Below are positions 45,920 to 64,000 of a DNA stretch of 64,000 nucleotides, piece after piece (position 1 is the stretch's first letter; each line of letters starts with the position of its first letter). Under the pieces are notes generated by a model. It was not told the origin of the DNA and did no database searches. It was given only the letters and a program-made list of their open reading frames with translations. Location: positions 37,237-101,236 of the forward strand of contig DUVH01000015.1 of the NCBI GenBank assembly GCA_012841145.1, written 5' to 3'. Source of the DNA: Clostridiaceae bacterium. Lineage in GTDB: Bacteria; Bacillota; Clostridia; Saccharofermentanales; DTU023. A program made the position numbers and the translations under genes.

Positions 45920-45932
45920 AGGAGACTAGAGA

Positions 45933-46676
45933 ATGACAGATAAACAGATTGTCCTCGTCACAGGCGCCGGCCGAGGTATCGGGCGCGCTATCGCGAAGAG
46001 ATTGGCTTCCGAAAACAGAAAACTGTACCTGCATTACGGCCAATCGGCTGAAGGAGCGGAAGCTTTGCGTCGGGAACTTGACGTTGAGGGATTCGAAGCG
46101 GAGACGATCAGAGCCGACCTTTTCGATCTTGATGCAACGACAAAACTCGTCAAGACAATCGCAGATAAAGAAGGTCGCTTCGACATTCTCGTCAACAACG
46201 CAGGCATTACGCGCGACGGGTTGGCAGTCCGAATGTCAAACGACGACTACGATGACGTCATCACAGTCAATCAGCGCGCCCCTTTCATCTTAATGAGAGA
46301 AGCGGGAAAAATCATGATGCGCCGTCGTTTCGGGCGAATCATCAATATCGCGAGCGTCGTCGGACTCACAGGAAATGCGGGGCAAATCAATTACGCGGCT
46401 TCTAAAGCGGCGCTGATCGCTATGAGCAAGAGCCTCGCTTTCGAACTCGCCACACGCGGTGTGACGGTCAACTGCATCGCGCCGGGCTACATCGAGACTG
46501 AAATGACCGATGTGCTGAGCGAATCGGTTCGTGAAGCGATCATGGCGCAAATTCCGCAGAAGCGCGCAGGATCACCTGAAGATATCGCGGCGGTCGCCGC
46601 TTTTCTCGCAAGCGATGACGCCGCCTATATTACGGCTCAGACAATCTCCGTCGACGGCGGCATGCTTCGCGGATAA
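45933..46676 (+). CDS. fabG: 3-oxoacyl-ACP reductase
   Basis: 247 aa SDR. Motifs TGAGRGIGRAIA, NNAGIT, YAASKAA. Confidence 0.92.
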   Translation: MTDKQIVLVTGAGRGIGRAIAKRLASENRKLYLHYGQSAEGAEALRRELDVEGFEAETIRADLFDLDATTKLVKTIADKEGRFDILVNNAGITRDGLAVRMSNDDYDDVITVNQRAPFILMREAGKIMMRRRFGRIINIASVVGLTGNAGQINYAASKAALIAMSKSLAFELATRGVTVNCIAPGYIETEMTDVLSESVREAIMAQIPQKRAGSPEDIAAVAAFLASDDAAYITAQTISVDGGMLRG

Positions 46677-46700
46677 AGGAAAAGGAAACGGGAGGTTTAC

Positions 46701-47945
46701 ATGGATAAGAGACGTGTTGTCGTCACAGGTATCGGCCTCGTGACACCGCTCGGTTTAGACGCCGAGACAAATAGAAAGAACATTCAATCTGGTACGCTAG
46801 GCATCGGCTATATGACGCGCGTTCAGCGCGACGACATCGACATCAAAGTCGCAGGAGAATTGAAAGATTATAACCCGGCCGACTACTTTGATTCAAAAAC
46901 GATTCGTCGCACCGATCCCGTCATGCAATACGGCATGATCGCCGCGCGCGAGACGCTAAAAAATGCGCGTCTTTCCGAGGGCGATTTTGACCCCGCCATG
47001 GCAGGCGTCATCATAGCATCAGGTATAGGCGGACTTTCAACGGTCGAAAAAGAAGTGGAAAATGCTCTGAACAGAGGATATAACCGCGTCTCGCCCTTTT
47101 TTATCCCGCTGACGATCGCCAACACGACGGCAAGTTCCGTCGCGATGGAATCGGGATTTAAAGGTCTTTGCACTTGCATCATCACCGCCTGTGCCGCCGG
47201 AACGAACGCGATCGGCGAGGCATTTCACAAAATACGCGACGGCTATCTCGATCTCGCTCTGACAGGAGGCGCGGAAGCGACGCTGACCCCGATGGCGTTC
47301 GGCGGTTTTGCTTCGATGCGCGCACTCTCGCGGTCGGCTGATCCCGCGCTCGCTTCAATACCCTTCGACAGACGTCGCGACGGTTTCGTCATGGGCGAAG
47401 GCGCCGGCGTCCTGCTCCTCGAATCACTTGAACACGCGCAAAAGCGCGGCGCCGCGATCCTCGCCGAAATCATCGGATACGGCGCATCGTGCGACGCCTT
47501 TCACATGACGGCACCCGATCCGTCCGGAGAACAGCCGGCGCGATCGATGTCGCTTTGTCTTGAGGATGCGGGCATTCACCCCGAAGACGTCCAATACATC
47601 AACGCTCACGGCACCTCAACGCCGCTCAACGATGTCATGGAAACGCAGGCGATCAAAAATGTATTTGGCGAGCACGCCTATAAGCTCCTTATCTCATCAA
47701 CAAAATCGATGACTGGTCACTTGCTCGGAGCAAGCGGAGCTCTGGAGGCGGCAGCAACTATTTTCGCGCTGCGAGACCAGTTCGTCCACCCGACGATCGG
47801 CTTGAGCGAACAGGATCCCGATTGTGATCTCGACTATGTCCCCGGTAAGGGCCGTCATGTCGATCTCACCTACGCGCTCAGCAACTCTCTCGGTTTCGGC
47901 GGGCACAATGCGAGTATCGCCTTCAAAGTCTGGAAAGAAGCTTAA
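46701..47945 (+). CDS. fabF: 3-oxoacyl-ACP synthase II
   Basis: 414 aa. RRVVVTGIGLVTPLG, active-site ITACAAGTNAIGEA, HGTSTPLND, GHLLGASG. Confidence 0.93.
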   Translation: MDKRRVVVTGIGLVTPLGLDAETNRKNIQSGTLGIGYMTRVQRDDIDIKVAGELKDYNPADYFDSKTIRRTDPVMQYGMIAARETLKNARLSEGDFDPAMAGVIIASGIGGLSTVEKEVENALNRGYNRVSPFFIPLTIANTTASSVAMESGFKGLCTCIITACAAGTNAIGEAFHKIRDGYLDLALTGGAEATLTPMAFGGFASMRALSRSADPALASIPFDRRRDGFVMGEGAGVLLLESLEHAQKRGAAILAEIIGYGASCDAFHMTAPDPSGEQPARSMSLCLEDAGIHPEDVQYINAHGTSTPLNDVMETQAIKNVFGEHAYKLLISSTKSMTGHLLGASGALEAAATIFALRDQFVHPTIGLSEQDPDCDLDYVPGKGRHVDLTYALSNSLGFGGHNASIAFKVWKEA

Positions 47946-47968
47946 AACCCGATAGGAGAACACAAACA

Positions 47969-48451
47969 ATGCCAAATCAATCACATGAACAGACAGGAGC
48001 CGCTGACAAAAAGCCTCTTGCGTTCGAATACGAAGAGATTCAGAACATTCTCCCTCACCGATACCCTTTCCTTCTCGTCGATCGCATCATTGACGGAGAA
48101 CTCGGTTCATTCGCCAAGGGAATTAAGCAGGTAACCGGGAATGAGATCTTTTTCCAAGGTCACTTCCCGGGGCAACCTGTCTTTCCGGGCGTTCTGCAGA
48201 TTGAAGCTCTCGCACAAGTCGGTGCCATCGCCGTGCTGGCCATGCCGGAGCATCGAGGAAAGATTGCGCTCTTCGCAGGGGTCAATCGCGCCCGTTTTAA
48301 AGGAATCGTTCGACCGGGAGATACGCTTGTTATGACGACAAAATTCACAGGCAAAAAAGCTGGTATCGGTTTTGCCGAGGGTAAAGCGACGGTAGACGGA
48401 AAGACGGTCTGTCAAGCGGAATTCATGTTTGCGTTGACAGAAAATACTTAA
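47969..48451 (+). CDS. fabZ: 3-hydroxyacyl-ACP dehydratase
   Basis: 160 aa. LPHRYPFLLVDRI, FFQGHFPGQPVFPGVLQIEALAQ. Confidence 0.93.
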   Translation: MPNQSHEQTGAADKKPLAFEYEEIQNILPHRYPFLLVDRIIDGELGSFAKGIKQVTGNEIFFQGHFPGQPVFPGVLQIEALAQVGAIAVLAMPEHRGKIALFAGVNRARFKGIVRPGDTLVMTTKFTGKKAGIGFAEGKATVDGKTVCQAEFMFALTENT

Positions 48452-48536: not shown

Positions 48537-49022
48537 ATGTTACAAGATGATATCCATTCGATTTATCAAAAACTCAAACTGTATTACTACCGACGCATTT
48601 TCCGGAAAATGGACGTGCATGAGGAGGATGCGCTCACCGCACTTGAAACGTTTTGTGCCGAAGCAATTTACGGTCTCGGACTTCCGACACTGACAGAATT
48701 CGCCGAATTCATCAATGTGTCACAGCCGAACGCGGCCTACAAAATCGCGAACCTCGAAAAGAAAGGGTTCGTGAAGAAAATCCGCTCCCAAGAGGACGGG
48801 CGTGTCGTACTGCTTCAGGTCACGGACAAATTCCTCGACTTGTACGGTACGAGTCAACGCTATTCGTCAATTCTCACGAAGCGCATTGAACGCCGCTTTT
48901 CAAAAGAGGAAGTCGAAGTCTTCCAGCGTGTGATGCATACGCTCTCTGAAGAGCTGATGAAAGAAGTCAACCAATACTTGGTAAAAAGGGCCAATCTTCC
49001 CAAGGGTGTCCTCGAAGAATAG
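48537..49022 (+). CDS. MarR-family transcriptional regulator (possible FabT-like fab regulator by position)
   Basis: 161 aa. Winged-helix core (LTEFAEFINVSQPNAAYKIANLEKKGFVKKIRSQEDGRVVLLQVTDK). Terminal gene of the fab cluster. Confidence 0.7.
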   Translation: MLQDDIHSIYQKLKLYYYRRIFRKMDVHEEDALTALETFCAEAIYGLGLPTLTEFAEFINVSQPNAAYKIANLEKKGFVKKIRSQEDGRVVLLQVTDKFLDLYGTSQRYSSILTKRIERRFSKEEVEVFQRVMHTLSEELMKEVNQYLVKRANLPKGVLEE

Positions 49023-49064: not shown

Positions 49065-50021
49065 TTAAGCATCGGGATCAATCCATACGAACGGTGTCTT
49101 TTCTTCGTGTGAAACGGGAATCTTGAGCGGGCGATCAGGAATGAGCGTACGTATCGTATAACGCTGCAGGTCGGATCGTCTCGCTTTTCTCACGGAGATT
49201 TCGATATCGCCGTGTTCCTCACACTTCGCCGCGGCAAACCACCTTTTGCCGGTTTTGAGCGTATGCCAATAACCGCCTGATTCGGTCTTGGCCAAATCAA
49301 GTTTTCTCCCGCACGCGGGACACGTATATTCGCGCGACTCAAGAAACGAGACAACATCGATACCTTTGTCAAGCGTGACGACGCTTTCCAACTGCCTTGT
49401 CAAGTGCGGATCGAAGATATAAGGCTTGAGCAGAGACTCGACCGTCTCTCCGGGATGATCCGTCAATTCCATCTCAAGCGTGCGCGCCAAAATACGGGCC
49501 GTGTAGATAGCGTCGGTAATCGCCTCATGAAACGGGAGATCCTTTGGAAGCCTCAGAAAATCGAGTGCGTATTCGACGGAGCGCTGATTGCCCGACGTCT
49601 CACCCTCCGCCAGACCGGAAAAAACTGCCTGTGCATTGAGGGCACGAAATTTGAAATCGCCTGCGACATCATGAAAGTGACAATTGGAAAGAAATACGTC
49701 GGCATCAGCTGTTCCCCACGATGCAAAAACGGGGTTTTCGCCTGCATACGCGATAATATCGTCGATCATGTGCGTGAATAATACGCCCTCACGCAGACTC
49801 TGCTGTGTTCTTTTTGTCACTGCCGCGATATGATAATGGATTTTCTTGTATAAGACAGGTGTCACATAACGATGAAACTCGCTGCCGAGCGAAAGATCCT
49901 CTCTCAAGCGCACGGCACCGAGTTCAATAATTTCAAATCTCATTAATGACGCGAGTTCTTGATCGACTTTTTGGGATCTCGACGCGGAATTCCACTCCAA
50001 ATCGACAACGATAAGGTTCAT
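49065..50021 (-). CDS. DEDDh-type 3'-5' exonuclease domain protein with C-terminal zinc-ribbon-like region
   Basis: 318 aa. Exo I VVDLEWN, a terminal H-x4-D ([11 protein letters not shown]), and C-terminal CPACG...CEEHG. ATGA overlap with the dnaJ stop. Confidence 0.7.
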
Positions 50022-51190
50022 GTCGATGTGTTGCCTTTCAGCGTATCGCGCACACGCTCAAAGAAACCGCGACGTTTCACATAATTCTGCTCCGTGCACG
50101 AGTCGTCAAACGCGCGCAACAAATCCTTTTGCTCCTGCGACAGGTAACGAGGCACTTCAATCACGACACGGAACTGATGATCACCACGCGCCGTCGGACG
50201 GCCGATATAGGGAATACCTTTCCCGCGCATGGTAAATACTTCGCCGGGCTGCGTTCCCTCGCGCAATTTATATTTTTGTTCACCGTCAATCGTCGGGACG
50301 TTTATTTCATCGCCGAGAGCCGCCTGTGCGAACGTGATCGGCACCTCACAGAATGTCATATTGCCCTCGCGTGTAAAAACGGGATGAGGCCTGATAAAGA
50401 CCTGGACATAGAGGTCACCGAACGGACCGCCGTTGCGACCCGGTTCCCCCTCGCCGCGAAGCGTCAGCATCTCACCCTCGTTAATGCCCGCCGGAACGGA
50501 AACGAGGAGCTTTCTGTCACGCATGACGGTGCCTTCTCCGTGACACGTCGGACACGGGTTTGTGATCACTTGTCCCGAACCGCCGCAACGCGAACACGTA
50601 CGCGACGTCAGCATCGAGCCGAAGAGCGTTTGCTGCTGCGTATGTTCCTGACCTGTTCCGTCACAAACGGGACATATCGTAGGCTCTGTCCCGTCCGCCG
50701 TCCCTTTACCTGAACATGTCGAACAGCGATCCGCCTTACGAATCGAAATTTCACGTTCTGTTCCGAAAGCCGCCTCTTCAAAATCGAGATTCATGCGATA
50801 GCGTAAGTTCGCGCCGCGCGTCGGACCCGTTCTGCGTCTCGTCTGCGTGCCGCCGAAACCGCCAAATCCGCCGAACCCTCCGAAGTTGCCGAAAAGTGTC
50901 GAAAAGAGATCATCCAAATTAATGTTATAAGCTCCGCCGCCGAAACCGCCGTAAGCTGAAGGGTCGACGCCCGCATGGCCGTACTGGTCGTAATTGGCAC
51001 GTTTCTCGGCATCGGAAAGGACTTCATAGGCTTCATTCGCTTCCTTGAATTTCTCTTCCGCGTCCTTGTCATCGGGATTGACGTCGGGGTGATACTGCTT
51101 CGCAAGCTTCCAGAAAGCTTTCTTGATCTCACCCTCGTCCGCATCGCGAGGAACGCCAAGCACTTCGTAATAATCGCGTTTTCCTGCCAA
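50018..51190 (-). CDS. dnaJ: molecular chaperone DnaJ
   Basis: 390 aa. J-domain (DYYEVLGV...HPD), G/F region, four CxxCxGxG zinc motifs. Confidence 0.95.
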
Positions 51191-51346
51191 TTGTGACCTC
51201 CTGTGCGGATGGATATACTCTCTCTTCCGCCACTCTATCTTATCATTCTTGCGTCATGAGAGCGGGGCGGCTCCCCGCTCTCATGCGGTTGATTTTGTTG
51301 CTCGGCGATTACAGTTTGTCCGCCGAATTATCTTCTGAAATTCCGC

Positions 51347-53191
51347 TTACTGAGGGTCGCCGCCGACATCTTTGAAATCAGCCTCATACGCTCCGGGGCC
51401 GGCACCTTGGCCATTCGCCTGCTGCTGATAAGGATCGGCCTGCGGAGGCTGTTCCTGCTGAGCCTGTTGGTATAGTTTCTCAGACGCCTTATAGATTGAC
51501 TGGCTCAGCGATTCCATATCTTGTTTCATAGCATCCAGATCGCCGCGGCCATGGCTGTCGCGCAGTTTTGCCAGATGCTCTTCAATGGCCTGTTTATCTG
51601 CGCCGTCAAACTTGTCGCCTGTCTCTTTTAAGAGCTTCTCCGTCTCGTAGATCGTCGTCTCTGCCCTGTTCTTCGTGTCGACTTCATCTTTCTTCTTGCG
51701 ATCTTCCTCTGCAAAGCGCTCCGCGTCTTTGACAGCCTGATCGATCTCGCTGTCCGACAGGTTCGTGCTCGCCGTGATCGTGATGTGCTGTTGACGGTTT
51801 GTTCCCTTGTCGATCGCGGATACGTTCACTATGCCGTTCGCGTCAATATCAAAGCTGACTTCAATCTGCGGAATACCGCGCGGCGCAGGGGCGATGCCGT
51901 CGAGGATAAAGCGACCGAGCGACTTGTTGCCCGCCGCCATCTCGCGCTCACCTTGAAGGACGTGGACTTCAACTTGTGTCTGTCCATCAGCCGCCGTCGA
52001 GAAGATTCGCTTCTTACTCGTCGGGATACGCGTATTGCGGTCGATCATGCGCGTCATAACGCCGCCGAGCGTCTCAATGCCGAGCGTCAACGGTGTAACG
52101 TCAATCAGAACCATGTCGTCAATCTCACCCGCCAAGATACCGCCCTGAATGGCGGCACCCATCGCGACACACTCGTCGGGGTTGATACCCTTGAACGGCT
52201 CCTTGCCGAAGAAATCACGCACCATGTCCTGCACGGCAGGGATTCTCGTCGAACCGCCGACTAATAGAACCTTGTCGATGTCGGCAGGTTTCAGACCGGC
52301 ATCGTTCATCGCTGCTCTTAAAGGCACTTTCGTCTTCTCGACAAGATCGTATGTCATTTCATCAAATTTAGCTCTCGTCAGCGAGAGATCGAGGTGTTTC
52401 GCACCGTGCTGGTCGGCCGAGATAAAGGGCAGGTTGATGCTCGTCGTCAGAACGCTCGACAGTTCAATCTTCGCCCTTTCCGCCGCCTCGCGCAGTCTCT
52501 GCATCGCCAGACGATCGCCTGAAAGATCGAGCCCTTGCTCTCTCTTCATCTCACTGACCATCCAGTCAACAATCTTATTATCAAAGTCATCGCCGCCGAG
52601 ACGCGTATTGCCTGAAGTCGCCTTCACTTCAAAGACGCCGTCCCCGATCTCCAGGATCGAGACGTCAAAAGTACCGCCGCCGAGGTCGAAAATCAAGATC
52701 TTCTGGTCGGATTCTTTATCAAGCCCGTAAGCGAGCGACGCAGCCGTCGGCTCGTTAATGATGCGATCGACGGTAAGTCCGGCGATAAGTCCCGCATCTT
52801 TCGTCGCCTGACGTTGAGAGTCGGAAAAGTAAGCGGGAACGGTCACGACGGCGTGCGTCACGGTCTCTCCGAGATACGCCTCCGCATCCTGTTTCAGCTT
52901 CTGGAGAATCATCGCCGAAATTTCCTGCGGCGAATACGCTTTTCCGTCGATCACGTTGCGGTGATCGCTTCCCATCTCGCGCTTGATCGACTGGATCGTG
53001 CGCTCGGGATTCTTCTGCGCCTGATTTTTCGCGATCTGCCCCACGAGACGCTCTCCCGTCGCCGTAAAAGCGACGACAGACGGTGTCGTTCGACTTCCCT
53101 CCGCGTTAGGGATTACAACCGGCTCTCCGCCTTCCATCACAGCGACAACGGAGTTCGTCGTTCCTAAGTCAATACCGATAATTTTTGCCAT
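51347..53191 (-). CDS. dnaK: molecular chaperone DnaK
   Basis: The ATG at 53191 gives [18 protein letters not shown].... Full Hsp70 similarity. Confidence 0.97.
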
Positions 53192-53293
53192 AATCATTTC
53201 CTCGTTTCGTTATAGTCGTTTTATTGCGCCACGGTTTAACTTGGCTCACGTCCCCCATGGCAAAGGCGCGAGCATGTGTGTCTTCCGTCAGTA

Positions 53294-53854
53294 TTAGTTG
53301 ACGACCTTGACCATGCTGTGTCGAATGACGCGGTCGCCTTTTTTGTATCCTTTCCGGAATACCTCCGTTACGGTGTTTTCCGGTTGATCCTCTTCTTCTG
53401 TATGCAGGACAACTTCGTGGACGTTGGGGTCGAACTGTGAGCCGACACCCTCGATCTCTTCGACTCCGAGCTTTCGGAACGCTTCATTGAGCTGTTGACC
53501 GATCAACACGATCCCTTCCGTAATCTCGCGCGCTTCATCCGTTTCCCATTGAGATGACCCCTTGATCGCGCTGTCGATGCTGTCGATCACGGGCATAAGG
53601 GCGCGGACTGTTTCCATAACGCCTTCTTCATAGCTTATCGCCTGATCTTGGCGCGTCCGACGTCTGTAATTGTCGAAGTCGGCACAAACGCGAAGATAGC
53701 GCCTGTTCAGCTCGTCATACTTGTCCTGCTCCGTTTCTTCCTTTTCGACTTCCTCCGTTTCAGGCAGTTCAACAGTCGTTTCTTCGACGACCTCTTCTTC
53801 CGTCAAACGGTATTTCTTCTCTTTCGCTTTCGCTTCTCCCTGTCGTTCGCTCAT
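53294..53854 (-). CDS. grpE: nucleotide exchange factor GrpE
   Basis: 186 aa. Acidic N-terminus, YLRVCADFDNYRRR, C-terminal beta domain. Confidence 0.93.
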   Translation of the reverse strand: MSERQGEAKAKEKKYRLTEEEVVEETTVELPETEEVEKEETEQDKYDELNRRYLRVCADFDNYRRRTRQDQAISYEEGVMETVRALMPVIDSIDSAIKGSSQWETDEAREITEGIVLIGQQLNEAFRKLGVEEIEGVGSQFDPNVHEVVLHTEEEDQPENTVTEVFRKGYKKGDRVIRHSMVKVVN

Positions 53855-53888
53855 TGCCGACTTACACTCCTTTGCCTCTTACGCTCTT

Positions 53889-55031
53889 TCAGTCCTCAAT
53901 CTCCGGGTGGTCATCGACGCGTGCGTAATGATCTCTTGCCACGTCGCAGAGCACCCTGTTGACGAAACTGATTTGCGAGATAATATTTCCATATTCCATA
54001 CGTTTAGGTCCGATGACGCCGATCTGTCCCGAGATCTGTCGCCCAATCCTATATGTCGTCGTAATGAACGACATGTCTTCCATGCCGCTCAGCGCGATCT
54101 CCTGCCCGATCCTGACCATATACGCCGGTCTGTCTTTTCGTGTAGCGAGGGCAGTCGGCGAAGACTCCATCTTTTCAAGCGTATCTAGACCCTCAACGAT
54201 GTTCCTTTCTTCTTCCTGCTCCATCTCCAGCATATAGCCCGCTACCATATGCTCCTGCCGCATCGTGTCATAGAAACGGCTGGCACGATCGACATCGCGG
54301 AACTCAGGGTGTTTGAGCAGTCGATATTTGCCGTCAATATAAACGTCGATCCTCTCTGTCTGCTTAATCGCGATATACGCCTCATATAAGACTTGGTTAA
54401 CGAGCGCTTCGGGGAGTTCCGTCTCTTCGGCAGCCGACGAAATCGTTACGAGTGTGATGTCATCGAGACGCTTGCCTGCCAGACAGCGCTCGATCGCCTG
54501 ACCGATTTCGTTGAGATCCTCCTCATCGATTAACGACGGTATCCTGATCAGCCTGTCATGGACAACGCCGGGTGACAGCACGAGAACGACGATCGCCCTC
54601 CCGGGCTCGATCATCATGATTTTGATCTGTTCCAAACTCGTATCGGAATACTGAGGCGAGAGTACGACAGAGAGATAGTTCGTCTTTTCCGCTAAGTATT
54701 CAGCCGTGCGCTCGATCATCTCGCGCGCCTCCCTGAGATTCTCCGACAAAAAATGTCGGACGGCGACTTCTTCCTCGGGAGGAATCTCCGGCAGAGAGAG
54801 CATATTGTCGACATATGCCCTATATCCCCTATCGGACGGCATGCGACCGGCTGAAGTGTGCGGTTTCACGAGGAATCCCATCTCTTCCAGTTCAGCCATC
54901 TCGTTCCGAATCGTAGCCGACGAATAGTTCAGATTGTGTCGTTTGACAAGCGACTTCGATCCGACAGGCTCACAAGTTTTGACGTAATCGTCTACGATTG
55001 CCTTCAATATGATCTTTTTACGATCGTCCAT
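53889..55031 (-). CDS. hrcA: heat-inducible transcription repressor HrcA
   Basis: The ATG at 55031 gives MDDRKKIILKAIVDDYVKTCEPVGSKSLV.... The track ORF extends to 55058, into the operator. Confidence 0.93.
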   Translation of the reverse strand: MDDRKKIILKAIVDDYVKTCEPVGSKSLVKRHNLNYSSATIRNEMAELEEMGFLVKPHTSAGRMPSDRGYRAYVDNMLSLPEIPPEEEVAVRHFLSENLREAREMIERTAEYLAEKTNYLSVVLSPQYSDTSLEQIKIMMIEPGRAIVVLVLSPGVVHDRLIRIPSLIDEEDLNEIGQAIERCLAGKRLDDITLVTISSAAEETELPEALVNQVLYEAYIAIKQTERIDVYIDGKYRLLKHPEFRDVDRASRFYDTMRQEHMVAGYMLEMEQEEERNIVEGLDTLEKMESSPTALATRKDRPAYMVRIGQEIALSGMEDMSFITTTYRIGRQISGQIGVIGPKRMEYGNIISQISFVNRVLCDVARDHYARVDDHPEIED

Positions 55032-55051
55032 GTCGCTCGTCCTTTCTCGCT

Positions 55052-55078
55052 TTGGCACTCGATGGCGTTGAGTGCTAA
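55052..55078. promoter_or_regulatory. CIRCE operator (HrcA binding site)
   Basis: TTGGCACTC-GATGGCGTT-GAGTGCTAA: a 9-bp inverted repeat with a 9-nt spacer, one mismatch from the consensus TTAGCACTC-N9-GAGTGCTAA. Confidence 0.92.
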
Positions 55079-56454: not shown

Positions 56455-57414
56455 TTATGACGGATCAGCAACCGTCGACGTATCAATGTTTGAATCGTTG
56501 ATTAACTCTTTAATAGATACCGCCATGCCCGCAAGACTTTGGATATCCGACGGGATGATGATCTTGGTGGCACGACCGTCCGCGACGTTCACCATCGTCT
56601 CGAGACCTTTAAGCGCGATCAGCGCCCTGTCGGCCTCGACTTCCTTGATCATGCGCAAGCCTTCCGCCGTTGCTTTCTGGATCGTCAGGATCGCCTCCGC
56701 GCGGCCTTGCGATTCGCGGATTGCCTGCTCCTTTTTCGCATCGGCACGCAAAATCGCAGCTTCTTTTTCTCCTTCAGCGACGCGGATCAAAGCTTCTTTC
56801 TCGCCCTCAGAGATCAGGATCTTCTCGCGTTTCTCACGCTCCGCCTTCATCTGGCGCTCCATCGCCGTCTGAATCTCTCTCGGCGGGATGATATTTTTCA
56901 ACTCTACACGATTGACTTTGATGCCCCATGGGTCTGTCGCTTCGTCGAGTGTCTGGCGCATACGCGTATTGATCACATCGCGCGATGTCAGCGTTTCGTC
57001 GAGCTCCAGATCTCCGATCAAGTTACGTAGCGTTGTCGCCGACAAGTTCTCAATAGCGACGATCGGGTTTTCGATGCCGTAACAGTAGAGAACCGGGTCG
57101 ACGATCTGATAGAACACGACCGTATCAATCTGCATCGTGACGTTATCTCGCGTAATGACGGCCTGTGGAGGGAAGTCGGCGACTCTCTCCTTCAGCGAGA
57201 CACGACGTTCGATCTTGTCGATAAACGGCATTTTCGCATGAAGTCCCGTGTGCCATGTCGTCTTGTAAGTACCGAGACGCTCAATGACAAACGCATGAGC
57301 TTGAGGGACGACACGAATATTCCTGACAAAGATGATCAGAACGGCAAGTGCAAGTATGCCCAATGCAATGTATCCTATGAAAGGTACGGACGATGCTAAA
57401 AACAAACTGTACAT
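56455..57414 (-). CDS. SPFH/band-7 (stomatin-like) membrane protein
   Basis: 319 aa. N-terminal TM helix, SPFH core, coiled-coil E/K/A-rich region. Confidence 0.88.
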   Translation of the reverse strand: MYSLFLASSVPFIGYIALGILALAVLIIFVRNIRVVPQAHAFVIERLGTYKTTWHTGLHAKMPFIDKIERRVSLKERVADFPPQAVITRDNVTMQIDTVVFYQIVDPVLYCYGIENPIVAIENLSATTLRNLIGDLELDETLTSRDVINTRMRQTLDEATDPWGIKVNRVELKNIIPPREIQTAMERQMKAEREKREKILISEGEKEALIRVAEGEKEAAILRADAKKEQAIRESQGRAEAILTIQKATAEGLRMIKEVEADRALIALKGLETMVNVADGRATKIIIPSDIQSLAGMAVSIKELINDSNIDTSTVADPS

Positions 57415-57489: not shown

Positions 57490-57987
57490 TTACCTTTTTG
57501 TCCAAGGCGTCGGCGTATCCCCTGCAACCGGTTTGACAATCGCCTTAACGCCAGCGATGCCGAGAACATGTACGAGTTCGCCCTCCGCGATCGTTCCCTC
57601 GCCTTCGACCCTCGCACTCCAGACCTGTCCTTGCACTTTGATCTGTCCCGTGCCCTTTATCGAATCGATCGGCTCGATGACGACACCCTCTTGGCCGATG
57701 ATGCGATCGGCGTTTGTCGCTCTGACGACGCGCTTAGCGAGCCTCGGCTTGATCGCAAAGAAAAAGATAATAAAACCAACACCTGACAGAACGACAAAAA
57801 GTACGAACTGCAACGCTATAGAAGCGCCGAGAAGTGCAGCGATCAGTGACACGATCGCTCCGAAAATGAACCAGATTGAGACTAGGTTCAGGGTCGCTAA
57901 TTCAGCAATAACCGCGATCGCCAGAATGATGCCCCAAAAAAGCACATCCGACACACCTAAAATCTTGTACGTCATTAAGATATTCAT
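57490..57987 (-). CDS. NfeD-family membrane protein
   Basis: The ATG at 57987 follows AGGAGGAGAG. TM helices followed by a C-terminal OB-like domain (GTGQIKVQGQVWSARVEGEG). Paired with the SPFH gene as usual. Confidence 0.8.
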   Translation of the reverse strand: MNILMTYKILGVSDVLFWGIILAIAVIAELATLNLVSIWFIFGAIVSLIAALLGASIALQFVLFVVLSGVGFIIFFFAIKPRLAKRVVRATNADRIIGQEGVVIEPIDSIKGTGQIKVQGQVWSARVEGEGTIAEGELVHVLGIAGVKAIVKPVAGDTPTPWTKR

Positions 57988-58107
57988 CGTTTCATTCTCT
58001 CCTCCTGCGCACTTACATCGGTTATGAATCTTCTTATTGCACAACGAAAATCACGGTGCATTGCGGCAAAATTCATATCGCACAATGGCCGGCCGGCACA
58101 AGGCATG

Positions 58108-59412
58108 CTACCCGTCGAACTCGTAATCGAGCGGGCCTTTCCTAGCCAACTGTACGATCACAAACGCCGTATTGTTCACTCGCAACGGCAGACGCGGAAT
58201 GCGCTGCTGTTCATCCTCATCAACGCTCCCGTCCGTTTCTTCTTCCTGAGTTTCCTGAGTATCCCAATCGACCGGTAATGTCTGTCGCGCGCTCTGCTCC
58301 TCAATGTCTTTGAAAAGATCTTCCAGTGTGCTCTGTCGATCAAACTGCGTCCCGGAAATCACACCTTCCGACGCCATAAACAGAGGGTTCTTATTCTCCA
58401 GTCCGACTTCCTCAATAGACTTGATGCGGTACTCGCCGGACTCCATAAAAACAACGGGAATACCTGCATCGTCGAACGGTGTATGGTCTGAAAGCTTCGT
58501 CGTCCATTCGCGAAAAATCCCGCTCTTGCCGGTACGCGTCGAAGCGATAAAAGAAGCCTGATTCGTGTAAATTGCGTATCCGTTCCGCGTATTGAGCTTG
58601 TATTCGAAGAAAATATCTGTCATTTGATAGAGCTTTCTTCTGTTAGCGTAATTTTTATACTCTCCGCCCGTCACGGAATTTTGCCCGGCGTGCGCGTAGA
58701 CCTTATCGCCTGCGAAGATCGGACCTACGTTGACCATAGCGTCGATGCGCGCACGTTCTTCATTTGACAATGAGTTCAAAAAATGTTTCGCTCCCGCGAA
58801 GGAGTCGGTTCCGGCTCCGAAAAAAACGAAAATGATATCGTATCCCGGTTTCATCTCGCGCATGATCTTTGCTGCAGTCATCACGGCAGCGACGCCTGAC
58901 GCGTTGTTATGGATGCCGTCGGCAACTAAAGGCTCCGTGTACCCTTCTTCATTCGGTTCAAGATGGACTGACGGAGTATCGTAGTGGGCACCGACAACCA
59001 AGACAAGATCGTCCGCTCGACCCGGTGTCGCCTGATCTGTCGCGTCTTTCGACTTAGGAGCATAGCGAAACCCCAGACCGTCAAGTCGAACGATCACATT
59101 CTGCGAAGCCTTCGTACTGCCGTCGCCGGCGACGGCTTTAAACTCCTGAATCTCAGGTTCATAACCAAACGACTTTAACCGTTCGGCGATCAAAGCGGAC
59201 GCATCTTTCTCCTGGCCGGTAAACGCCTCACGACGCGGAAATTTCTTGGCAAGTTCTCGTGCGAAATCGGCGCCGTCATTTCCGTAATCTGCGATACGAA
59301 TACTTTCCTTGTCAGTCTCCGTCGAACATGCTGTGAAGGTTAAAAGAAGCAAAATCACAAAAAACAGCGAGAATACACGGAGTCTTAACGTTCTGTACGG
59401 GGGCCGATTCAT
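58108..59412 (-). CDS. M28-family metallopeptidase lipoprotein
   Basis: The ATG at 59412 gives MNRPPYRTLRLRVFSLFFVILLLLTFTAC (lipobox). M28 motifs present: VGAHYDT, NNASGVAAV, FVFFGAG. The longer track ORF (to 59715) would overlap the divergent gene. Confidence 0.7.
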   Translation of the reverse strand: MNRPPYRTLRLRVFSLFFVILLLLTFTACSTETDKESIRIADYGNDGADFARELAKKFPRREAFTGQEKDASALIAERLKSFGYEPEIQEFKAVAGDGSTKASQNVIVRLDGLGFRYAPKSKDATDQATPGRADDLVLVVGAHYDTPSVHLEPNEEGYTEPLVADGIHNNASGVAAVMTAAKIMREMKPGYDIIFVFFGAGTDSFAGAKHFLNSLSNEERARIDAMVNVGPIFAGDKVYAHAGQNSVTGGEYKNYANRRKLYQMTDIFFEYKLNTRNGYAIYTNQASFIASTRTGKSGIFREWTTKLSDHTPFDDAGIPVVFMESGEYRIKSIEEVGLENKNPLFMASEGVISGTQFDRQSTLEDLFKDIEEQSARQTLPVDWDTQETQEEETDGSVDEDEQQRIPRLPLRVNNTAFVIVQLARKGPLDYEFDG

Positions 59413-59549
59413 CTGTCCGAACACGCCTGCCTTTTCTATCATTTGTGTCTGGTTTGCGCCGCAAGACGCGCCAAACAAGCGAGTTAATTGTATCACACTC
59501 GACACTTCGTTCTCGACGGACGACGGGCGTCGTATGGTATGATCTGGGT

Positions 59550-61091
59550 GTGAATAAAGTCGGCTTGCAATCGGTGTTTTCAAGTTTTTCTCCGTTGTCG
59601 TCAAAACGGTCTTTTGCCGCTGTTCTGCTATGTGCCGCACTTTTTTTCTCCCTGCTCCCGTCATCGCAGGGCGTCTTAGCGGACGACGGACAGACAACTG
59701 AACCGTCGGAACCACGTATCAGTGAAGGGTTCGAACCTTCCGTCAAGCTTCCCGCCGTACTTGTGCTCGACTCGTCGCTCCGATCGGAACTCTATGCGAA
59801 AAACAGCGAGATCGTTCTGGAAATTCCCGCCGTTTCTCGTCTGATGACTCTTTATCTCGCGTCCGAGCGCCTTGCCGCAGATGACATGATTCCCATAAGT
59901 AAAGATGCCGCGAGGATCTCCGAGTTTGAGGATCACATCGATATCCCGCTCCGAGAAGGCGACTCTTTTCCCGTTCGATATATGTTGTTGCGTCTCATGT
60001 TCCAGCAATCTGATGCGGCAGCAGTCGCGCTCGCCGAGAAGATCGCCGGCTCAAGAAGGGAGTTCGTCTCCGAAATGCAGAAAACGGCCATGATGCTCGG
60101 TATGAGTCAGACGACTATTCACAGGTGTGATGTAGTGCGGGCGGAACGCGAATCGAGCATTGCGAGTGAAATTGCCGATGCCGCCGCCATACTGGAGGAA
60201 CATATCGCTCAAAATGCTTCCGGAGCTCCCGCCTTACCCGAGGCATCCGACAGGGTATCAACGGCAAAGACGACGCTCCGAGACGTGGCACGGCTCCTCT
60301 CCGCCATACAGGCGAATGCGCGCGCAAAAAACGTACTCTCCCTTCAAGAAGAATTGATACAGGTGACGCTTTCGACCGGCGTCCGTGTTGTCGCGATGCG
60401 TTCTCCGGCGAGCAGGCTCAGAACGCTGTCCGAAAACCGTATCACGTGTGCCTGGCTGATGATGTCGGATCGCTACTCCTTGGCGGTCACCACCGGATCG
60501 ACAGTCGACGGCATCTCTGTCATGACGTTGACGGCATCGCTCAACCAAGCGAGCACGATACAGCCGACTTTGCAACTCTACCAGGAGATCGATACTTTTT
60601 ACACTAAATCAGTATTGACACGCTCCGGCGAAAAATACCCCGGGGCTCCGGAAGCGGCAGAAAACGGCGAACTGTTCTCGTTGATGTACCTCGATTCCGT
60701 CGATTACATCCACCCGAAAACGGACCACTTTCTCACGCCGAAACTCGATTACATCGGAAACGCGCCTTACCCCTTGCCTATTCTCAGAGGTACCATGACG
60801 GGGCAGGTGCTCTTTACGCTGAAAGACGGCACGCGTATACCGGTGCGCGTCGGATCGGACTCCGATATTCTGGCGAGTAACAACATCATAAGTCGCGGTA
60901 TTCAACTGATGTCGCGCAACCCTAACCTCGCCTACAGCATCATGGGAATCGCGGTCGTCCTGTCACTCGCTCTCTTATTCGTTATTATCCGGGAAATTAG
61001 AAAAATTCTCTATTGGCAGCGTATCAAATCACTGGAGGACACTGTCCAAGCTGCGCGCTCCATTCTCATCGGTGAACAGAAAGACCGATAA
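59550..61091 (+). CDS. PBP5/D-Ala-D-Ala carboxypeptidase-like protein with degenerate active-site motifs and C-terminal membrane anchor
   Basis: GTG at 59550 precedes a signal peptide (FAAVLLCAALFFSLLPSSQG). It aligns to S11 peptidases, but SxxK reads AVSR and SxN reads QQS. C-terminal TM helix (AYSIMGIAVVLSLALLFVII). The start codon is uncertain. Confidence 0.6.
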   Translation: MNKVGLQSVFSSFSPLSSKRSFAAVLLCAALFFSLLPSSQGVLADDGQTTEPSEPRISEGFEPSVKLPAVLVLDSSLRSELYAKNSEIVLEIPAVSRLMTLYLASERLAADDMIPISKDAARISEFEDHIDIPLREGDSFPVRYMLLRLMFQQSDAAAVALAEKIAGSRREFVSEMQKTAMMLGMSQTTIHRCDVVRAERESSIASEIADAAAILEEHIAQNASGAPALPEASDRVSTAKTTLRDVARLLSAIQANARAKNVLSLQEELIQVTLSTGVRVVAMRSPASRLRTLSENRITCAWLMMSDRYSLAVTTGSTVDGISVMTLTASLNQASTIQPTLQLYQEIDTFYTKSVLTRSGEKYPGAPEAAENGELFSLMYLDSVDYIHPKTDHFLTPKLDYIGNAPYPLPILRGTMTGQVLFTLKDGTRIPVRVGSDSDILASNNIISRGIQLMSRNPNLAYSIMGIAVVLSLALLFVIIREIRKILYWQRIKSLEDTVQAARSILIGEQKDR

Positions 61092-61124
61092 TCAGGCGTA
61101 TTATTCGTAAGAATCGGAAGAACG

Positions 61125-61673
61125 CTATGAGCGCCGTCTCACCCACGGCGAAATTCTATCCATGTAAAACTGTTCAAAAACTTTCAAGACGTAATGGTAT
61201 ACGAGGAGAAAAATCTGTAATGCGACCATCACGAGCACAATAATCACAAGCGTCGACGGCTCAAATCGTGTAAACACAACACGATCGATTCCGACAATAA
61301 AGAGTGCCATCAGTGCCATCGCCGACATGACGATATGCGTCACCAGCTTTGTGACGAACATGCTCGTCCGCACGCGTAAAAACATGATAAGTTGAGGCAA
61401 ATGGCCGAAACAAAAGGCGAACATCACGCCGGAAAAGACACCGGGATGGATGAAGGCAAGAACTGTCGTAACGAGATAGACAAGAAATGTGCCGCGCGAA
61501 CCGAGCTCCAGATGAGCGACGACGATGACGAGAGAAGCCAGCGTCAAGAGAAAAAAACGGCCCGTTGGCAGGACACCCGCCAAAATCAGGAATAACCAAC
61601 AAAGGGCCGATAGAATACCGCCCAAAGCGATTTGAGCAGAACCGGAAAAAGACGACCTCGTTCCCCTCGCCAT
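61125..61673 (-). CDS. polytopic membrane protein, function unknown
   Basis: 182 aa, ~5 hydrophobic helices. Lies 7 nt downstream of the J-domain gene. Confidence 0.6.
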   Translation of the reverse strand: MARGTRSSFSGSAQIALGGILSALCWLFLILAGVLPTGRFFLLTLASLVIVVAHLELGSRGTFLVYLVTTVLAFIHPGVFSGVMFAFCFGHLPQLIMFLRVRTSMFVTKLVTHIVMSAMALMALFIVGIDRVVFTRFEPSTLVIIVLVMVALQIFLLVYHYVLKVFEQFYMDRISPWVRRRS

Positions 61674-61680
61674 ACCTTAA

Positions 61681-62088
61681 TCAGCAGCAAAGACAGAGAT
61701 CGCCGCCCATGCATTCACAACAAGAGTCGGCACAACAAAGGCATGTGAGCGTTTGACAACACGAATCTTCACTTCCGCCCGAGCGATAGTATGGAGATTG
61801 GTTTTGAGGATCGCCGTATGGCGACTGCTGGTGCGTCCACCGACGTCCGCCGTATCCGAAAGGATCCCATCCGGGATGCTGTTGCTGATCCTGTTGAACG
61901 TTGCCGAGCGTAATCTGGTCATACGCCGCGTTGATCTCGCGCATTTTAGCTTCGGCAAGTTCCTTGGCGCGCTCATCCTGAAACTGATCGGGATGGTATT
62001 TGCGTACGAGTTCTCGGTACGCTGTCCGGACTTCTTCTTCGGACGCTCCCGGAGAGATACCGAGGACGGAATATGGGTTTTTACTCAT
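61681..62088 (-). CDS. J-domain protein with Q/P-rich linker and C-terminal cysteine string
   Basis: 135 aa. J-domain NPYSVLGISPGASEEEVRTAYRELVRKYHPD. The tail CCQTLTCLCCADSCCECMGGDLCLCC has 13 Cys in 26 aa. Confidence 0.8.
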   Translation of the reverse strand: MSKNPYSVLGISPGASEEEVRTAYRELVRKYHPDQFQDERAKELAEAKMREINAAYDQITLGNVQQDQQQHPGWDPFGYGGRRWTHQQSPYGDPQNQSPYYRSGGSEDSCCQTLTCLCCADSCCECMGGDLCLCC

Positions 62089-62115
62089 TATTTACTCCTA
62101 CAAACGATCAGAACT

Positions 62116-63027
62116 TTAGACGTTGGGGAGCGGCTCCCCCGCCACCACACGGCCGCGCGTCATAGGCAAACCGAGCGTAACGATATTATACACAAGCCCA
62201 CCGTAGCGCTCATATGTCAAAAGAGCGAGATTCCTGTCGATCGCCTCCTCCGCCTCAATCAGTCGCATCTCGGCGATCTTACTGCCGTTCTCCAGCGATA
62301 AAAGCGGATTCCAGTTGTTCTTAGCGCGATCGTCCTCCAGATCGTCGAGCGCATCGACCAAATATACCCATCGACCGAGCGCACGCCCCGCGTCGCCAAG
62401 CAGTGTCCTATAGAGGTCGGCATTTTGCTCGCTCTCATACCATCTAGGAGCGCTCGGGACGCCGTCCTGTCCCCGCTCGGAAATATCCTCCGATGATACG
62501 ATTACATCAAAACCGTCCTCGAAAAGACACCCTAGGATATCGCCGAAACAATCTGCGGGATCACGCGACGAGCGCCCCTTCTCGATCTCTTCCAGCTGTT
62601 TCAGCTCATCGCGGATGTACGATGCGACGGCAGGTCTCGCGCGAACTGCCTTATTCGCGGAGTGCCGGAGCAAGAGCGACAGCACGCGCCCGCGAATCGG
62701 TTTATCGTCTTGTGCGTCATCTCTCATCGATTCATATGCGAGAAGACACGACAAGTCCGCCGCGTAGTCCAGCACATGATGGTCAGCTGCGATCGCCTTC
62801 TTCTTAAAAGGATTCAAGACACACCCCTCGTGTCTGACGTCGGGCTCGACGGTCGAAAAAGCGAGGAGCAGAAGTGCCAAAAAAGTCATGTCGTACGAAA
62901 CCGTAAAACGCTGTAGTTGACCGATCCGTTTCCCGATCGCCTTGCAAAGACCGCAGTAAACCGCCTTGTACAAAGTGAAGTCGCGCATCAGAAGTTCAGG
63001 TTTTTCAGGTCTCACGTATCCGAACAT
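62116..63027 (-). CDS. DUF5685-like protein
   Basis: 303 aa. The N-terminus MFGYVRPEKPELLMRDFTLYKAVYCGLCKAIG matches my recollection of the DUF5685 family of Clostridia. Confidence 0.6.
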   Translation of the reverse strand: MFGYVRPEKPELLMRDFTLYKAVYCGLCKAIGKRIGQLQRFTVSYDMTFLALLLLAFSTVEPDVRHEGCVLNPFKKKAIAADHHVLDYAADLSCLLAYESMRDDAQDDKPIRGRVLSLLLRHSANKAVRARPAVASYIRDELKQLEEIEKGRSSRDPADCFGDILGCLFEDGFDVIVSSEDISERGQDGVPSAPRWYESEQNADLYRTLLGDAGRALGRWVYLVDALDDLEDDRAKNNWNPLLSLENGSKIAEMRLIEAEEAIDRNLALLTYERYGGLVYNIVTLGLPMTRGRVVAGEPLPNV

Positions 63028-63155
63028 GACGTATATTGTCCTTATTTTTATGCAATCTGTAAACAGCGTGCACCGCTGATATTCCGCGCAATTATGATAT
63101 CATTGATGAGATTGCGATACACGAGGAGGCGAACCCGTTTTTTAGGGTGATGTTT

Positions 63156-64000
63156 ATGGCAAAAATCACAAAAACTCGTTTTGCACCAAGTCCGACGGGC
63201 ATCATGCACATCGGCAACTTGCGCTCCGCGCTGTACGAGTATTTAATCGCGCGCTCCGAAGGGGGAAAGTTTCTCCTGCGCATCGAGGACACCGATCGCG
63301 AGAGGTACGTTGAGGGAGCCGTTGAAGCGATCTATCGAACGCTCGACGTGTGCGGTCTTCACCACGATGAGGGACCGGATATCGGAGGACCGAACGGGCC
63401 TTACGTTCAGAGCGAGCGCCTTCATCTATACAGTGAATACGCCGATCAACTTGTAGCCTCCGGACACGCATACCCCTGCTTTTGTTCGGTCGAACGACTG
63501 GCAGATATGTGGGAAGACGAAGAAACGGAATTTATCGGATACGATCGCCGCTGCCGCGACATCGATCCCGCAATTGCCGCTCATCGCGTCGCCGCAGGAG
63601 AGCCGCACGTCATCCGTCAACGAATGCCTCTTGACGGCGAGACGACGTTCTCAGATGAAGTCTACGGCGTCATTACCGTCATGAATCAAGAGCTTGAGGA
63701 TCAGATCCTTATCAAGTCGGACGGTTATCCGACCTACAATTTTGCAAACGTCATCGACGATCACCTGATGGAGATCACGCACGTCGTCCGAGGATCCGAG
63801 TATCTGTCGTCGACGCCGAAATACTGCATTCTGTATGACGCCTTCGGTTGGGAGATCCCCACGTTCGTCCACTTGCCGCTAATCGTCGGCGAAGACGGAA
63901 AGAAGCTCTCCAAACGCCACGGCTCCACGAGCTTTGAAGAACTCGTAAAAGACGGATATCTTCCTGAAGCGATCATCAATATGATCGCCTTCCTCGGCTG
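63156..64000 (+). CDS. gltX: glutamate--tRNA ligase (partial, continues past window end)
   Basis: Absent from the ORF track (runs off the edge). My translation from ATG 63156 gives [29 protein letters not shown]...[10 protein letters not shown]...KLSKRHG, with HIGH-like and KMSKS-like motifs. Confidence 0.92.

Follow-up and report, generated by a model that had tools for sequence, protein, structure and literature searches.

Three tightly spaced genes on the minus strand of a contig from a Clostridiaceae bacterium (GenBank assembly GCA_012841145.1, contig DUVH01000015.1) raise the question of why a small J-domain protein should end in a dense run of cysteines, and what the two proteins encoded beside it have to do with that end. 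The stretch analysed here, called the window below, covers positions 37,237 to 101,236 of the contig, 64,000 nucleotides in all, and coordinates are counted from its first letter. We find that the trio is a self-contained module, widespread and strongly conserved in the class Clostridia. Its invariant core consists of the protein with the C-terminal cysteine motif, a DUF5685 protein and a membrane protein that resembles the S-component of an energy-coupling factor (ECF) transporter. We suggest, with a probability of roughly 0.35, that DUF5685 modifies the cysteines of the tail, most plausibly by S-prenylation; statements on what the trio does are predictions. The genes, from the listing of open reading frames, are:

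62116..63027, minus strand: gene 1, DUF5685 gene, 303 aa
61681..62088, minus strand: gene 2, cysteine-tail J-protein gene, 135 aa, with a J domain, a disordered Q/G/P linker and the cysteine motif
61125..61673, minus strand: gene 3, membrane-protein gene, 182 aa, ECF S-component-like

The gaps are 27 nt between genes 1 and 2 and 7 nt between genes 2 and 3. A first-pass annotation, made from the letters of the window, had given the same layout, and the listing bears out its coordinates.

The feature that sets gene 2 apart is its end:

61684..61761, minus strand: C-terminal cysteine motif, residues 110-135 of gene 2; core CLCCADSCCECMGGDLCLCC-COOH

This tail, CCQTLTCLCCADSCCECMGGDLCLCC, is 26 residues long and holds 11 cysteines. 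The first-pass annotation was right about a cysteine-rich C-terminal segment of 26 residues and wrong about the number, which it gave as 13. At the 1.2% cysteine frequency of the neighbouring proteins, the probability of 11 or more cysteines in 26 residues is 4e-15. To describe the motif, 170 unique tails were anchored with a regular expression that fixed C(0), G(+4) and D(+6) and allowed E, D or S at +1. The three fixed positions are 100% conserved by construction, and +1 is E in all 170. Among positions outside the selection, those on the N-terminal side are C-13 (92%), L-7 (97%), C-5 (92%) and D-3 (100%), and those on the C-terminal side are C+2 (96%), G+5 (96%), L+7 (87%), C+10 (99%) and C+11 (86%). 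In 99% of the tails the last residue is +11. The consensus reads C..(L/C).CL(C/W)C(A/L)D(S)(C)CECMGGDL..CC. Without exception the motif sits at the very end of the protein, and CC closes 150 of the 185 unique tails (81%; the 170 and 15 degenerate ones). The degenerate tails, for example …CLMCNLLCNCCCR and …CPCYCIPCCLPCDCMPCGCCC, keep only the cysteine and hydrophobic composition and the C-terminal position. Thus, the tail is a specific conserved C-terminal motif, not low complexity or a biased string. It has no match among Pfam families or PDB sequences, and a 36-aa tail query, short and compositionally biased, gave two matches in the representative library.

How tightly this motif is tied to its neighbours can be seen from both directions. 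Fifty-four DUF5685 homologues were aligned and the alignment was used to scan one genome per GTDB species, which confirmed relatives in at least 589 species-representative genomes; 80 of these loci were examined closely. After correction of artefacts in the assigned starts of the reading frames, a cysteine-tail gene is adjacent in 78 of the 79 genome loci with an intact DUF5685 reading frame, and a homologue of the membrane gene is present in 72 of the 77 with enough downstream sequence. When the flanking reading frames were clustered all against all, conservation across loci was confined to DUF5685 (80 loci), the tail gene (78) and the membrane gene (72); the neighbours that come next are clade-specific and reach at most 22 loci each. 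For the reverse test, metagenome contigs were scanned with a degenerate DNA pattern for CECMGGD, giving 120 loci. The motif lies five residues ahead of a stop, in a cysteine-rich tail, in 110 of them. DUF5685 is adjacent in 84 of 86 testable loci, nearly always directly upstream of the tail gene, and the membrane gene comes next in 99 of 102. The enzyme and tail genes overlap or abut in many loci, where gaps of -1, -4, -14 and -17 nt are common. Two possible refutations had been named beforehand, that the genes are not conserved together and that the tail is not conserved in orthologues; the counts above (78/79, 84/86 and 99/102 loci; 170 anchored tails) show conservation of both.

Judged by record titles, the trio occurs in Clostridium sensu stricto, Tissierellales, Lachnospiraceae, Cellulosilyticum, Sporanaerobium, Butyricicoccus and Christensenellaceae, and also in the Saccharofermentanales/Mageeibacillus/Fastidiosipila group, home of the closest relatives of the window's trio. 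It stands in housekeeping contexts, as a single copy per locus. One clade (L027, L050, L054, L056 and L061) lacks the membrane gene and has DUF1385-prmC downstream instead; its tails are degenerate, of cysteine and hydrophobic residues without CECMGGD, and every DUF5685 invariant is kept. None of the 62 loci that have a canonical tail and sufficient downstream sequence lacks the membrane gene (Fisher p=1.5e-4). We do not rely on this association because the five exceptions probably form one clade and represent a single evolutionary event. DUF5685 also occurs alone, in three C. botulinum-type loci (L049, L084 and L085), between rubrerythrin genes and a chemotaxis-receptor gene.

The other end of the tail protein is far more variable. 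For the window's copy it comprises:

61900..62079, minus strand: J domain, residues 4-63 (PF00226, E=8e-15)
61987-61995, minus strand: HPD motif, H32-P33-D34

The domain scores 55.1 bits against a PF00226 cut-off of 27.8 and shares 37% identity with its counterpart in the DnaJ encoded in the window. It is followed by a linker rich in Q, G and P (residues 64-109). Both the canonical J domain with its HPD and the linker had been read correctly at first pass. The commonest architecture of the tail proteins is J domain, TPR and tail in about 200 aa; the lineage of the window has lost the TPR, and J domain, Q/G/P linker and tail make up the 135 aa. An HPD-less J-like domain is found in 15 of 90 unique metagenomic tail proteins (~17%) and in 2 of 78 genomic ones. 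These heads keep a J-like N-terminus (NPFSVLGV…AYRELARKY), with the HPD replaced by, for example, SDS, QED or GDE. Such "pseudo-J" proteins, exemplified by …ARKYSDSSDDG… and …RKYQEDSL…, still lie beside DUF5685 and the membrane gene (metagenomic members L097, L099, L111, L116, L134, L135, L151, L156, L160, L171, L180, L183, L185, L189 and L204; further members L024 and L036). The Sporanaerobium- and Cellulosilyticum-type tail protein has no J domain, only a TPR-like head and the tail (~130 aa), and the gene order there is tail gene, DUF5685, membrane gene. J-less loci with a TPR-like head of about 80 aa (L033:5590-5988, L039, L043, L046, L074, L076 and L096) carry an extra CCCCC-DD-CCC run, followed by CLDTCCECMGGDLISCI; here too the tail gene comes first, then DUF5685 and then the membrane gene.

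The HPD is required for stimulation of Hsp70. Since some 10-20% of family members elsewhere lack it or carry only a TPR head, the latter in one lineage, recruitment of Hsp70 cannot be the conserved core function of the family. The dedicated Hsp70-recruiting module proposed at first pass does not hold for the family as a whole; at this locus the canonical J domain makes recruitment of DnaK by the window's copy plausible. The function of the head as an adaptor would then vary among lineages, from J, J with TPR and HPD-less J-like with TPR to TPR alone.

If the head varies and the tail does not, the partner that follows the tail most faithfully deserves attention. Gene 1 is a full-length member of Pfam DUF5685 (PF18937; E=8.5e-67, 225.8 bits against a cut-off of 26.7, residues 1-288), as the first-pass annotation had recognised; there is no match to it in NCBIfam. 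Three groups of residues stand out:

62944..62958, minus strand: YCGLC (CxxC), Y24-C28, joined by C69 (62821-62823) and position 72 (62812-62814)
62704..62721, minus strand: first Asp-rich motif D103-D104-A-Q-D107-D108 (DDxxD, like FARM, the first aspartate-rich motif), at the C-terminal end of helix 84-106
62329..62355, minus strand: second Asp-rich motif D225-A-L-D228-D229-L-E-D-D233 (like SARM, the second aspartate-rich motif, or like NSE), followed by invariant N240

Y24, C25, G26 and C28 are invariant in the 54 homologues; YCGLC is conserved as had been noted, only the protein does not begin with it, the motif lying at residues 24-28. A larger conservation set of 80 sequences (29-100% pairwise identity) has C25 and C28 in 80/80 and Y24 and G26 in 79/80. 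The positions invariant in all 80 are C25, C28, D46, T48, C69, D103, D107, G218, W220, D225, A226, D229, D233 and N240. D104 (67/80) and D228 (65/80) are present in most, and position 72 is H in 49 and N in 28 of the 80. The CxxC…CxxH/N arrangement may form a Zn-type site or, with three cysteines, an Fe-S site, judging from the residues conserved.

An AlphaFold2 model built from the 54-sequence alignment is all-alpha (pLDDT 92.7, pTM 0.91). When it was compared with the PDB by Foldseek, the top 18 matches were trans-isoprenyl diphosphate synthases (GGPPS, FPPS, OPPS and SPS; trans-IDS for short), and ranks 19-29 brought squalene and trichodiene synthases among further trans-IDS entries. The entries 4jxy and 4jyx align with TM 0.60-0.61 and probability 1.0. 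The acids of the second motif, spaced i, i+4 and i+8, lie at the end of helix 200-228 of the model, and both Asp motifs stand at helix ends, where class I isoprenoid enzymes have FARM and SARM (or NSE/DTE). From this we infer that DUF5685 is probably a divergent member of the class I isoprenoid-synthase fold, trans-IDS-like.

The third partner had been described at first pass as polytopic, and this is borne out by the five long hydrophobic helices in its AlphaFold2 model; relatives show 5-6 hydropathy peaks. Gene 3 itself has no Pfam or NCBIfam match, and a word index yields only 13 homologues. Iterative searches within the loci show that the downstream gene is homologous across clades. The model, built from the shallow 13-sequence alignment, is of moderate confidence (pLDDT 78.6). 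Its best Foldseek matches are RibU 3p5n and TmRibU 5kbw (TM 0.55-0.64, probability 1.0), after which come a further S-component, BioY and PanT. Weak Pfam matches among 42 relatives are to DUF2232 (13 proteins, best E 6e-4), ECF_trnsprt (one, 1.2e-5) and ECF-ribofla_trS (one, 0.011). Gene 3 thus models as an S-component-like protein. No EcfT or EcfA gene is found among the conserved neighbours of the trio loci; a shared module may lie elsewhere in the genome. The protein family has no conserved His, Cys or Met, which argues against an S-component of the metal type. An ICMT-like protein or a metal transporter was also considered for gene 3 and dropped, as there were no such fold matches and no conserved His, Cys or Met. 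The product may be a docking partner rather than a transporter.

How could an enzyme-like protein, a cysteine tail and a membrane protein work together? We suggest that DUF5685 would use its two invariant Asp-rich motifs to hold Mg2+, would bind an allylic (poly)prenyl diphosphate through this metal, and would transfer the prenyl group to one or more cysteine thiolates in the tail encoded by the adjacent gene. Its CxxC…CxxH/N site may hold Zn2+ and activate or position the thiol; activation of a thiolate by Zn2+ is established chemistry in Zn-dependent thiol alkyltransferases. Modified and hydrophobic, the tail would bring its protein to the membrane, where it would probably dock on the S-component-like protein or close to it. 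The version in the window, with its canonical J domain, could then recruit DnaK locally at the membrane. The scheme would follow the logic of ComQ-ComX and PalQ-PalX, except that Cys replaces Trp and that the acceptor is a folded protein, not a peptide. It is the predicted trans-IDS fold, together with the invariant Asp-rich motifs, that points to enzymatic modification of the tail over simple tethering.

The case for prenylation by DUF5685 draws on the two-way linkage between DUF5685 and the tail, the gene overlap, the fold, the invariant residues, the C-terminal position of the tail, the lineages with degenerate tails and the precedent of ComQ, PalQ and ChrPC. In the degenerate-tail lineages, every DUF5685 invariant is kept although the tail retains only cysteines and hydrophobic residues. 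Bacterial peptide prenyltransferases of the trans-IDS-like kind with adjacent substrate genes are known in ComQ, PalQ and ChrPC (PMC13290415), and PalQ strictly requires the C-terminal acceptor residue (PMC10853753). A wider picture, which we offer tentatively, is that Clostridia have an endogenous protein S-prenylation in which a Mg2+/Zn2+ trans-IDS-like DUF5685 lipidates the C-terminal cysteine motif of J/TPR adaptors, membrane-docked beside the ECF-S-like partner.

Several observations weigh against prenylation of the tail. The fold assignment of DUF5685 rests on a predicted structure, with Foldseek E-values of only ~1e-2. At the sequence level, a Pfam search at E<=5 with the 54 DUF5685 members returned only DUF5685 and no trans-IDS family, a PDB profile search gave only designed helical repeats (E>0.09), and hhalign against E. 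coli IspA and IspB gave a non-significant result (E 0.05-0.06, probability ~1%); the collected loci contained no polyprenyl synthase homologue with which that profile could be deepened. In a full-length alternative hhalign alignment, likewise not significant, D103/D104/D107 fall collinearly on the FARM of IspA, and G218/D225/D229/D233 on IspA G216/D223/D227/D231; this is consistent with the fold result and is not independent proof of it. According to an April 2026 review, all the bacterial trans-IDS-like prenyltransferases that have been characterised target Trp in small peptides (PMC13290415). Moreover, invariant acids (D, E, D) and a GG lie among the cysteines of the canonical tail, a pattern that fits a plain lipid anchor less well than it fits metal ligands or a specific docking site. 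Prenylation also leaves the part played by the S-component-like protein unexplained, and tblastn detects no tail or membrane gene within 6 kb of the C. botulinum-type DUF5685.

The main rival is a tail that binds metal, as a metallothionein-like Zn/Cu/Cd-thiolate cluster or as an Fe-S or rubredoxin-like centre (compare Dph4/DNAJC24 and DnaJ-Fer). DUF5685 would then be a partner or client that makes no covalent modification, possibly sharing metal through its three cysteines, and the S-component-like protein would supply a micronutrient. The six well-conserved cysteines with invariant D, E and D at fixed spacing would suit such a site, and the family is apparently confined to anaerobes, going by record titles. 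The alpha-domain of metallothionein has 11 cysteines and ends in CSCC, and 11 is also the count in the window's tail. J-proteins with metal-binding cysteine domains do exist (PMC3564930; zf-CSL class in 10.1101/2022.02.28.482344). There is also a covariation between the two proteins: with Asn at DUF5685 position 72, three extra tail cysteines ("CCC" at -6, -1 and +8) occur in 18 of 27 loci, and with His at that position in none of 35, a contrast confounded by phylogeny, which could reflect compensation at a shared metal site or simply descent. Metal binding nevertheless gives no role to the DDxxD and DxxxDxxxD of DUF5685 or to its isoprenoid-synthase fold, and the degenerate tails lose D/E/GG while DUF5685 stays fully conserved. 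The S-component-like protein lacks the conserved His, Cys and Met that a metal transporter needs, and the tail resembles no known metal-binding motif in Pfam or PDB sequences. We regard this reading as doubtful. Improbable, in our view, is that DUF5685 is a small-molecule isoprenoid synthase or cyclase whose product is handled by the membrane protein, with the cysteine-tail protein not the substrate but a helper in assembly, regulation or redox chemistry. DUF5685 shares its fold and both Asp-rich motifs with synthases, S-component folds bind small molecules, and the solitary DUF5685 of C. botulinum would make sense here. Yet DUF5685 is linked most strongly and most universally to the tail (78/79 and 84/86), and less so to the membrane gene, which one clade has lost. 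No other isoprenoid-pathway gene is linked to the trio loci. The motifs GGKRxR (G43-R48) and FQ (F219-Q220) of IspA, motifs of trans-IDS that contact isopentenyl diphosphate or substrate, are not recognisable in the conservation of DUF5685.

Two further explanations share parts of the evidence. In its enzyme fold, and in its order of an enzyme followed by a precursor with a C-terminal core, the module matches comQ-comX and palQ-palX (PMC10853753), so that it could be ComQXPA-like or belong with the ribosomally synthesised and post-translationally modified peptides. DUF5685 would modify the tail, which would then be cut from its J/TPR "leader" to act as a signalling or antimicrobial peptide, either exported or sensed by way of the membrane protein. 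However, the supposed leaders are folded J and TPR domains, such as adaptors inside the cell typically have. Nor is a protease, an ABC exporter or a two-component sensor linked, and the module sits in housekeeping contexts as a single copy per locus; such a peptide is quite improbable. The slimmest chance goes to a true analogue of the cysteine-string protein (CSP), whose tail would be S-acylated (palmitoylated) for membrane attachment with DUF5685 uninvolved in that step. J domain, linker and cysteine-rich segment do come in the order of a CSP (PMC4447612). What stands in the way is the lack of a linked acyltransferase, DHHC-type or other, and the conserved acidic and glycine residues and obligate C-terminal position, whereas the string of CSP is central. 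Apart from the J domain, a scan at E<=0.01 finds no Pfam family in the window protein, and none in the tail alone; therefore nothing beyond the shared J domain ties it to CSP. The probability left over from prenylation and these rivals belongs to some explanation not yet imagined.

The surroundings of the trio were examined as well. Its putative expression signals are:

62095-62099: Shine-Dalgarno sequence AGGAG, preceding the cysteine-tail J-protein gene
63035..63063, minus strand: sigma-70-like promoter TTTACA-17-GACAAT, a consensus match only

The promoter-like match lies inside the 137-nt gap between DUF5685 and a divergent plus-strand reading frame from ~63165, upstream of the trio, which we take by eye, unchecked by any tool, to be gltX. 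The downstream boundary is a convergent S11-peptidase-like gene (59445..61091, plus strand). The first-pass annotation had placed the canonical dnaK-dnaJ operon about 10 kb away, and hrcA-grpE-dnaK-dnaJ is indeed found at 50018..55058, 8.5-10.5 kb from the trio. A CIRCE inverted repeat, TTGGCACTC-N9-GAGTGCTAA with one mismatch, lies at 55052-55078 upstream of hrcA (53889..55058, minus strand), and this operon looks HrcA-controlled by that sequence. None precedes the trio. As the only CIRCE in the window sits upstream of hrcA, the trio does not obviously belong to the HrcA regulon. Rfam has no match within 58000-64000. PADLOC found no defence-system match, and a defence-system identity for the trio was dropped.

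Other neighbours are noted for completeness. The longest reading frames called for an M28-peptidase-like gene (58108-59715, minus strand) and the S11 gene (59445-61091, plus strand) overlap head to head by ~270 nt; the true starts therefore lie further in. The S11 gene is D-Ala-D-Ala carboxypeptidase-like, with a match spanning no more than the N-terminal 60% of the Pfam model. In 15-18 related loci, too, these two genes flank the trio. An adjacent minus-strand pair, NfeD-like (57490..58044) and SPFH/Band-7 (56455..57414), lies between the trio region and a hemW-like radical-SAM gene and hrcA; it is near the trio in about 10 related loci as well. Further away, a FabA/FabZ-like dehydratase gene (47969..48451, plus strand) ends a run of plus-strand reading frames at 43055-48451 and is followed by a gene for a MarR-family regulator (48537..49022, plus strand).

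Our search of the literature found DUF5685 in one in-silico survey only, the string CECMGGD in no searchable paper, and nothing relevant on bacterial cysteine-string or prenylated J-proteins. The cysteine-tail class is unmentioned in a large census of J-protein architectures, and we came across no account of the module or of its tail motif, nor any fold assignment for DUF5685. The components come from known superfamilies; what would be new is their combination and the chemistry it implies. Protein cysteine prenylation is treated as a eukaryotic process. If prenylation of the tail is correct, bacteria lipidate their own proteins on cysteine, and an isoprenoid-synthase fold has been recruited for this chemistry. 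Among trans-IDS-like prenyltransferases, DUF5685 would be the first with a cysteine acceptor and a folded protein as substrate, which would give a function to a family present in at least 589 species-representative genomes and a new biocatalyst for lipidating C-terminal protein cysteines. Some Clostridia would have a new route to membrane localisation of DnaK, and the module would be a bacterial, convergent counterpart of the cysteine-string protein and of Rab-type lipid anchoring. If the tail binds metal instead, the family is still a new bacterial class of J/TPR proteins with an obligate pair of partners.

Known systems resemble the trio in parts. Gene 3 models as a small helical bundle that matches the ECF S-components RibU, BioY and PanT best, with the difference that EcfT and EcfA are not linked and that the window protein falls below every Pfam threshold. 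DjlA, Dph4/DNAJC24 and DnaJ-Fer are, like the window's protein, class C J-proteins that localise or specialise Hsp70 through an appendage that does not bind clients, a membrane anchor or a metal centre. The appendage is a transmembrane helix in DjlA of E. coli, a CSL zinc finger in Dph4 and a ferredoxin domain in DnaJ-Fer, and none of the three has this cysteine tail or a DUF5685 partner.

The chemistry proposed here, a Zn-activated Cys thiolate attacking a prenyl diphosphate, is that of FTase, GGTase-I and RabGGTase, and the Rab proteins modified by RabGGTase end in CC or CXC, just as 81% of the tails end in CC. These eukaryotic enzymes are, however, alpha-alpha-barrel heterodimers of unrelated fold, and no CaaX box is conserved in the tails, where position -4 is Cys in only ~56%. 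CSPalpha/DNAJC5 likewise has a J domain at its N-terminus, followed by a linker and a segment dense in cysteines, and in both cases membrane association and local recruitment of Hsp70 are proposed. In CSPalpha the string is internal, DHHC enzymes palmitoylate it, and a C-terminal domain comes after it, whereas here the …CECMGGDL..CC motif is strictly C-terminal, has invariant D/E/G and is linked to a prenyl-synthase-like protein; some members of the tail family also lack a functional J domain. The first-pass annotation had likened the window protein to eukaryotic cysteine-string proteins. The domain order supports it; the strict C-terminal D/E/G motif and the lack of a linked DHHC-like gene speak against a closer likeness. 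The resemblance is architectural only, convergent at most.

The closest parallel is offered by ComQ, PalQ and the P domain of ChrPC. They have the isoprenoid-synthase alpha fold that is predicted for DUF5685, and Asp-rich motifs, with no detectable similarity at the sequence level. The enzyme gene adjoins the gene of the acceptor, and the modified residue lies at or near the acceptor's C-terminus. DUF5685 differs from ComQ in its invariant CxxC…C site and in a full second acidic motif, which ComQ lacks. The known enzymes act on Trp in short secreted peptides, whereas the candidate acceptor here is a cysteine-rich motif at the end of an intracellular J/TPR protein.

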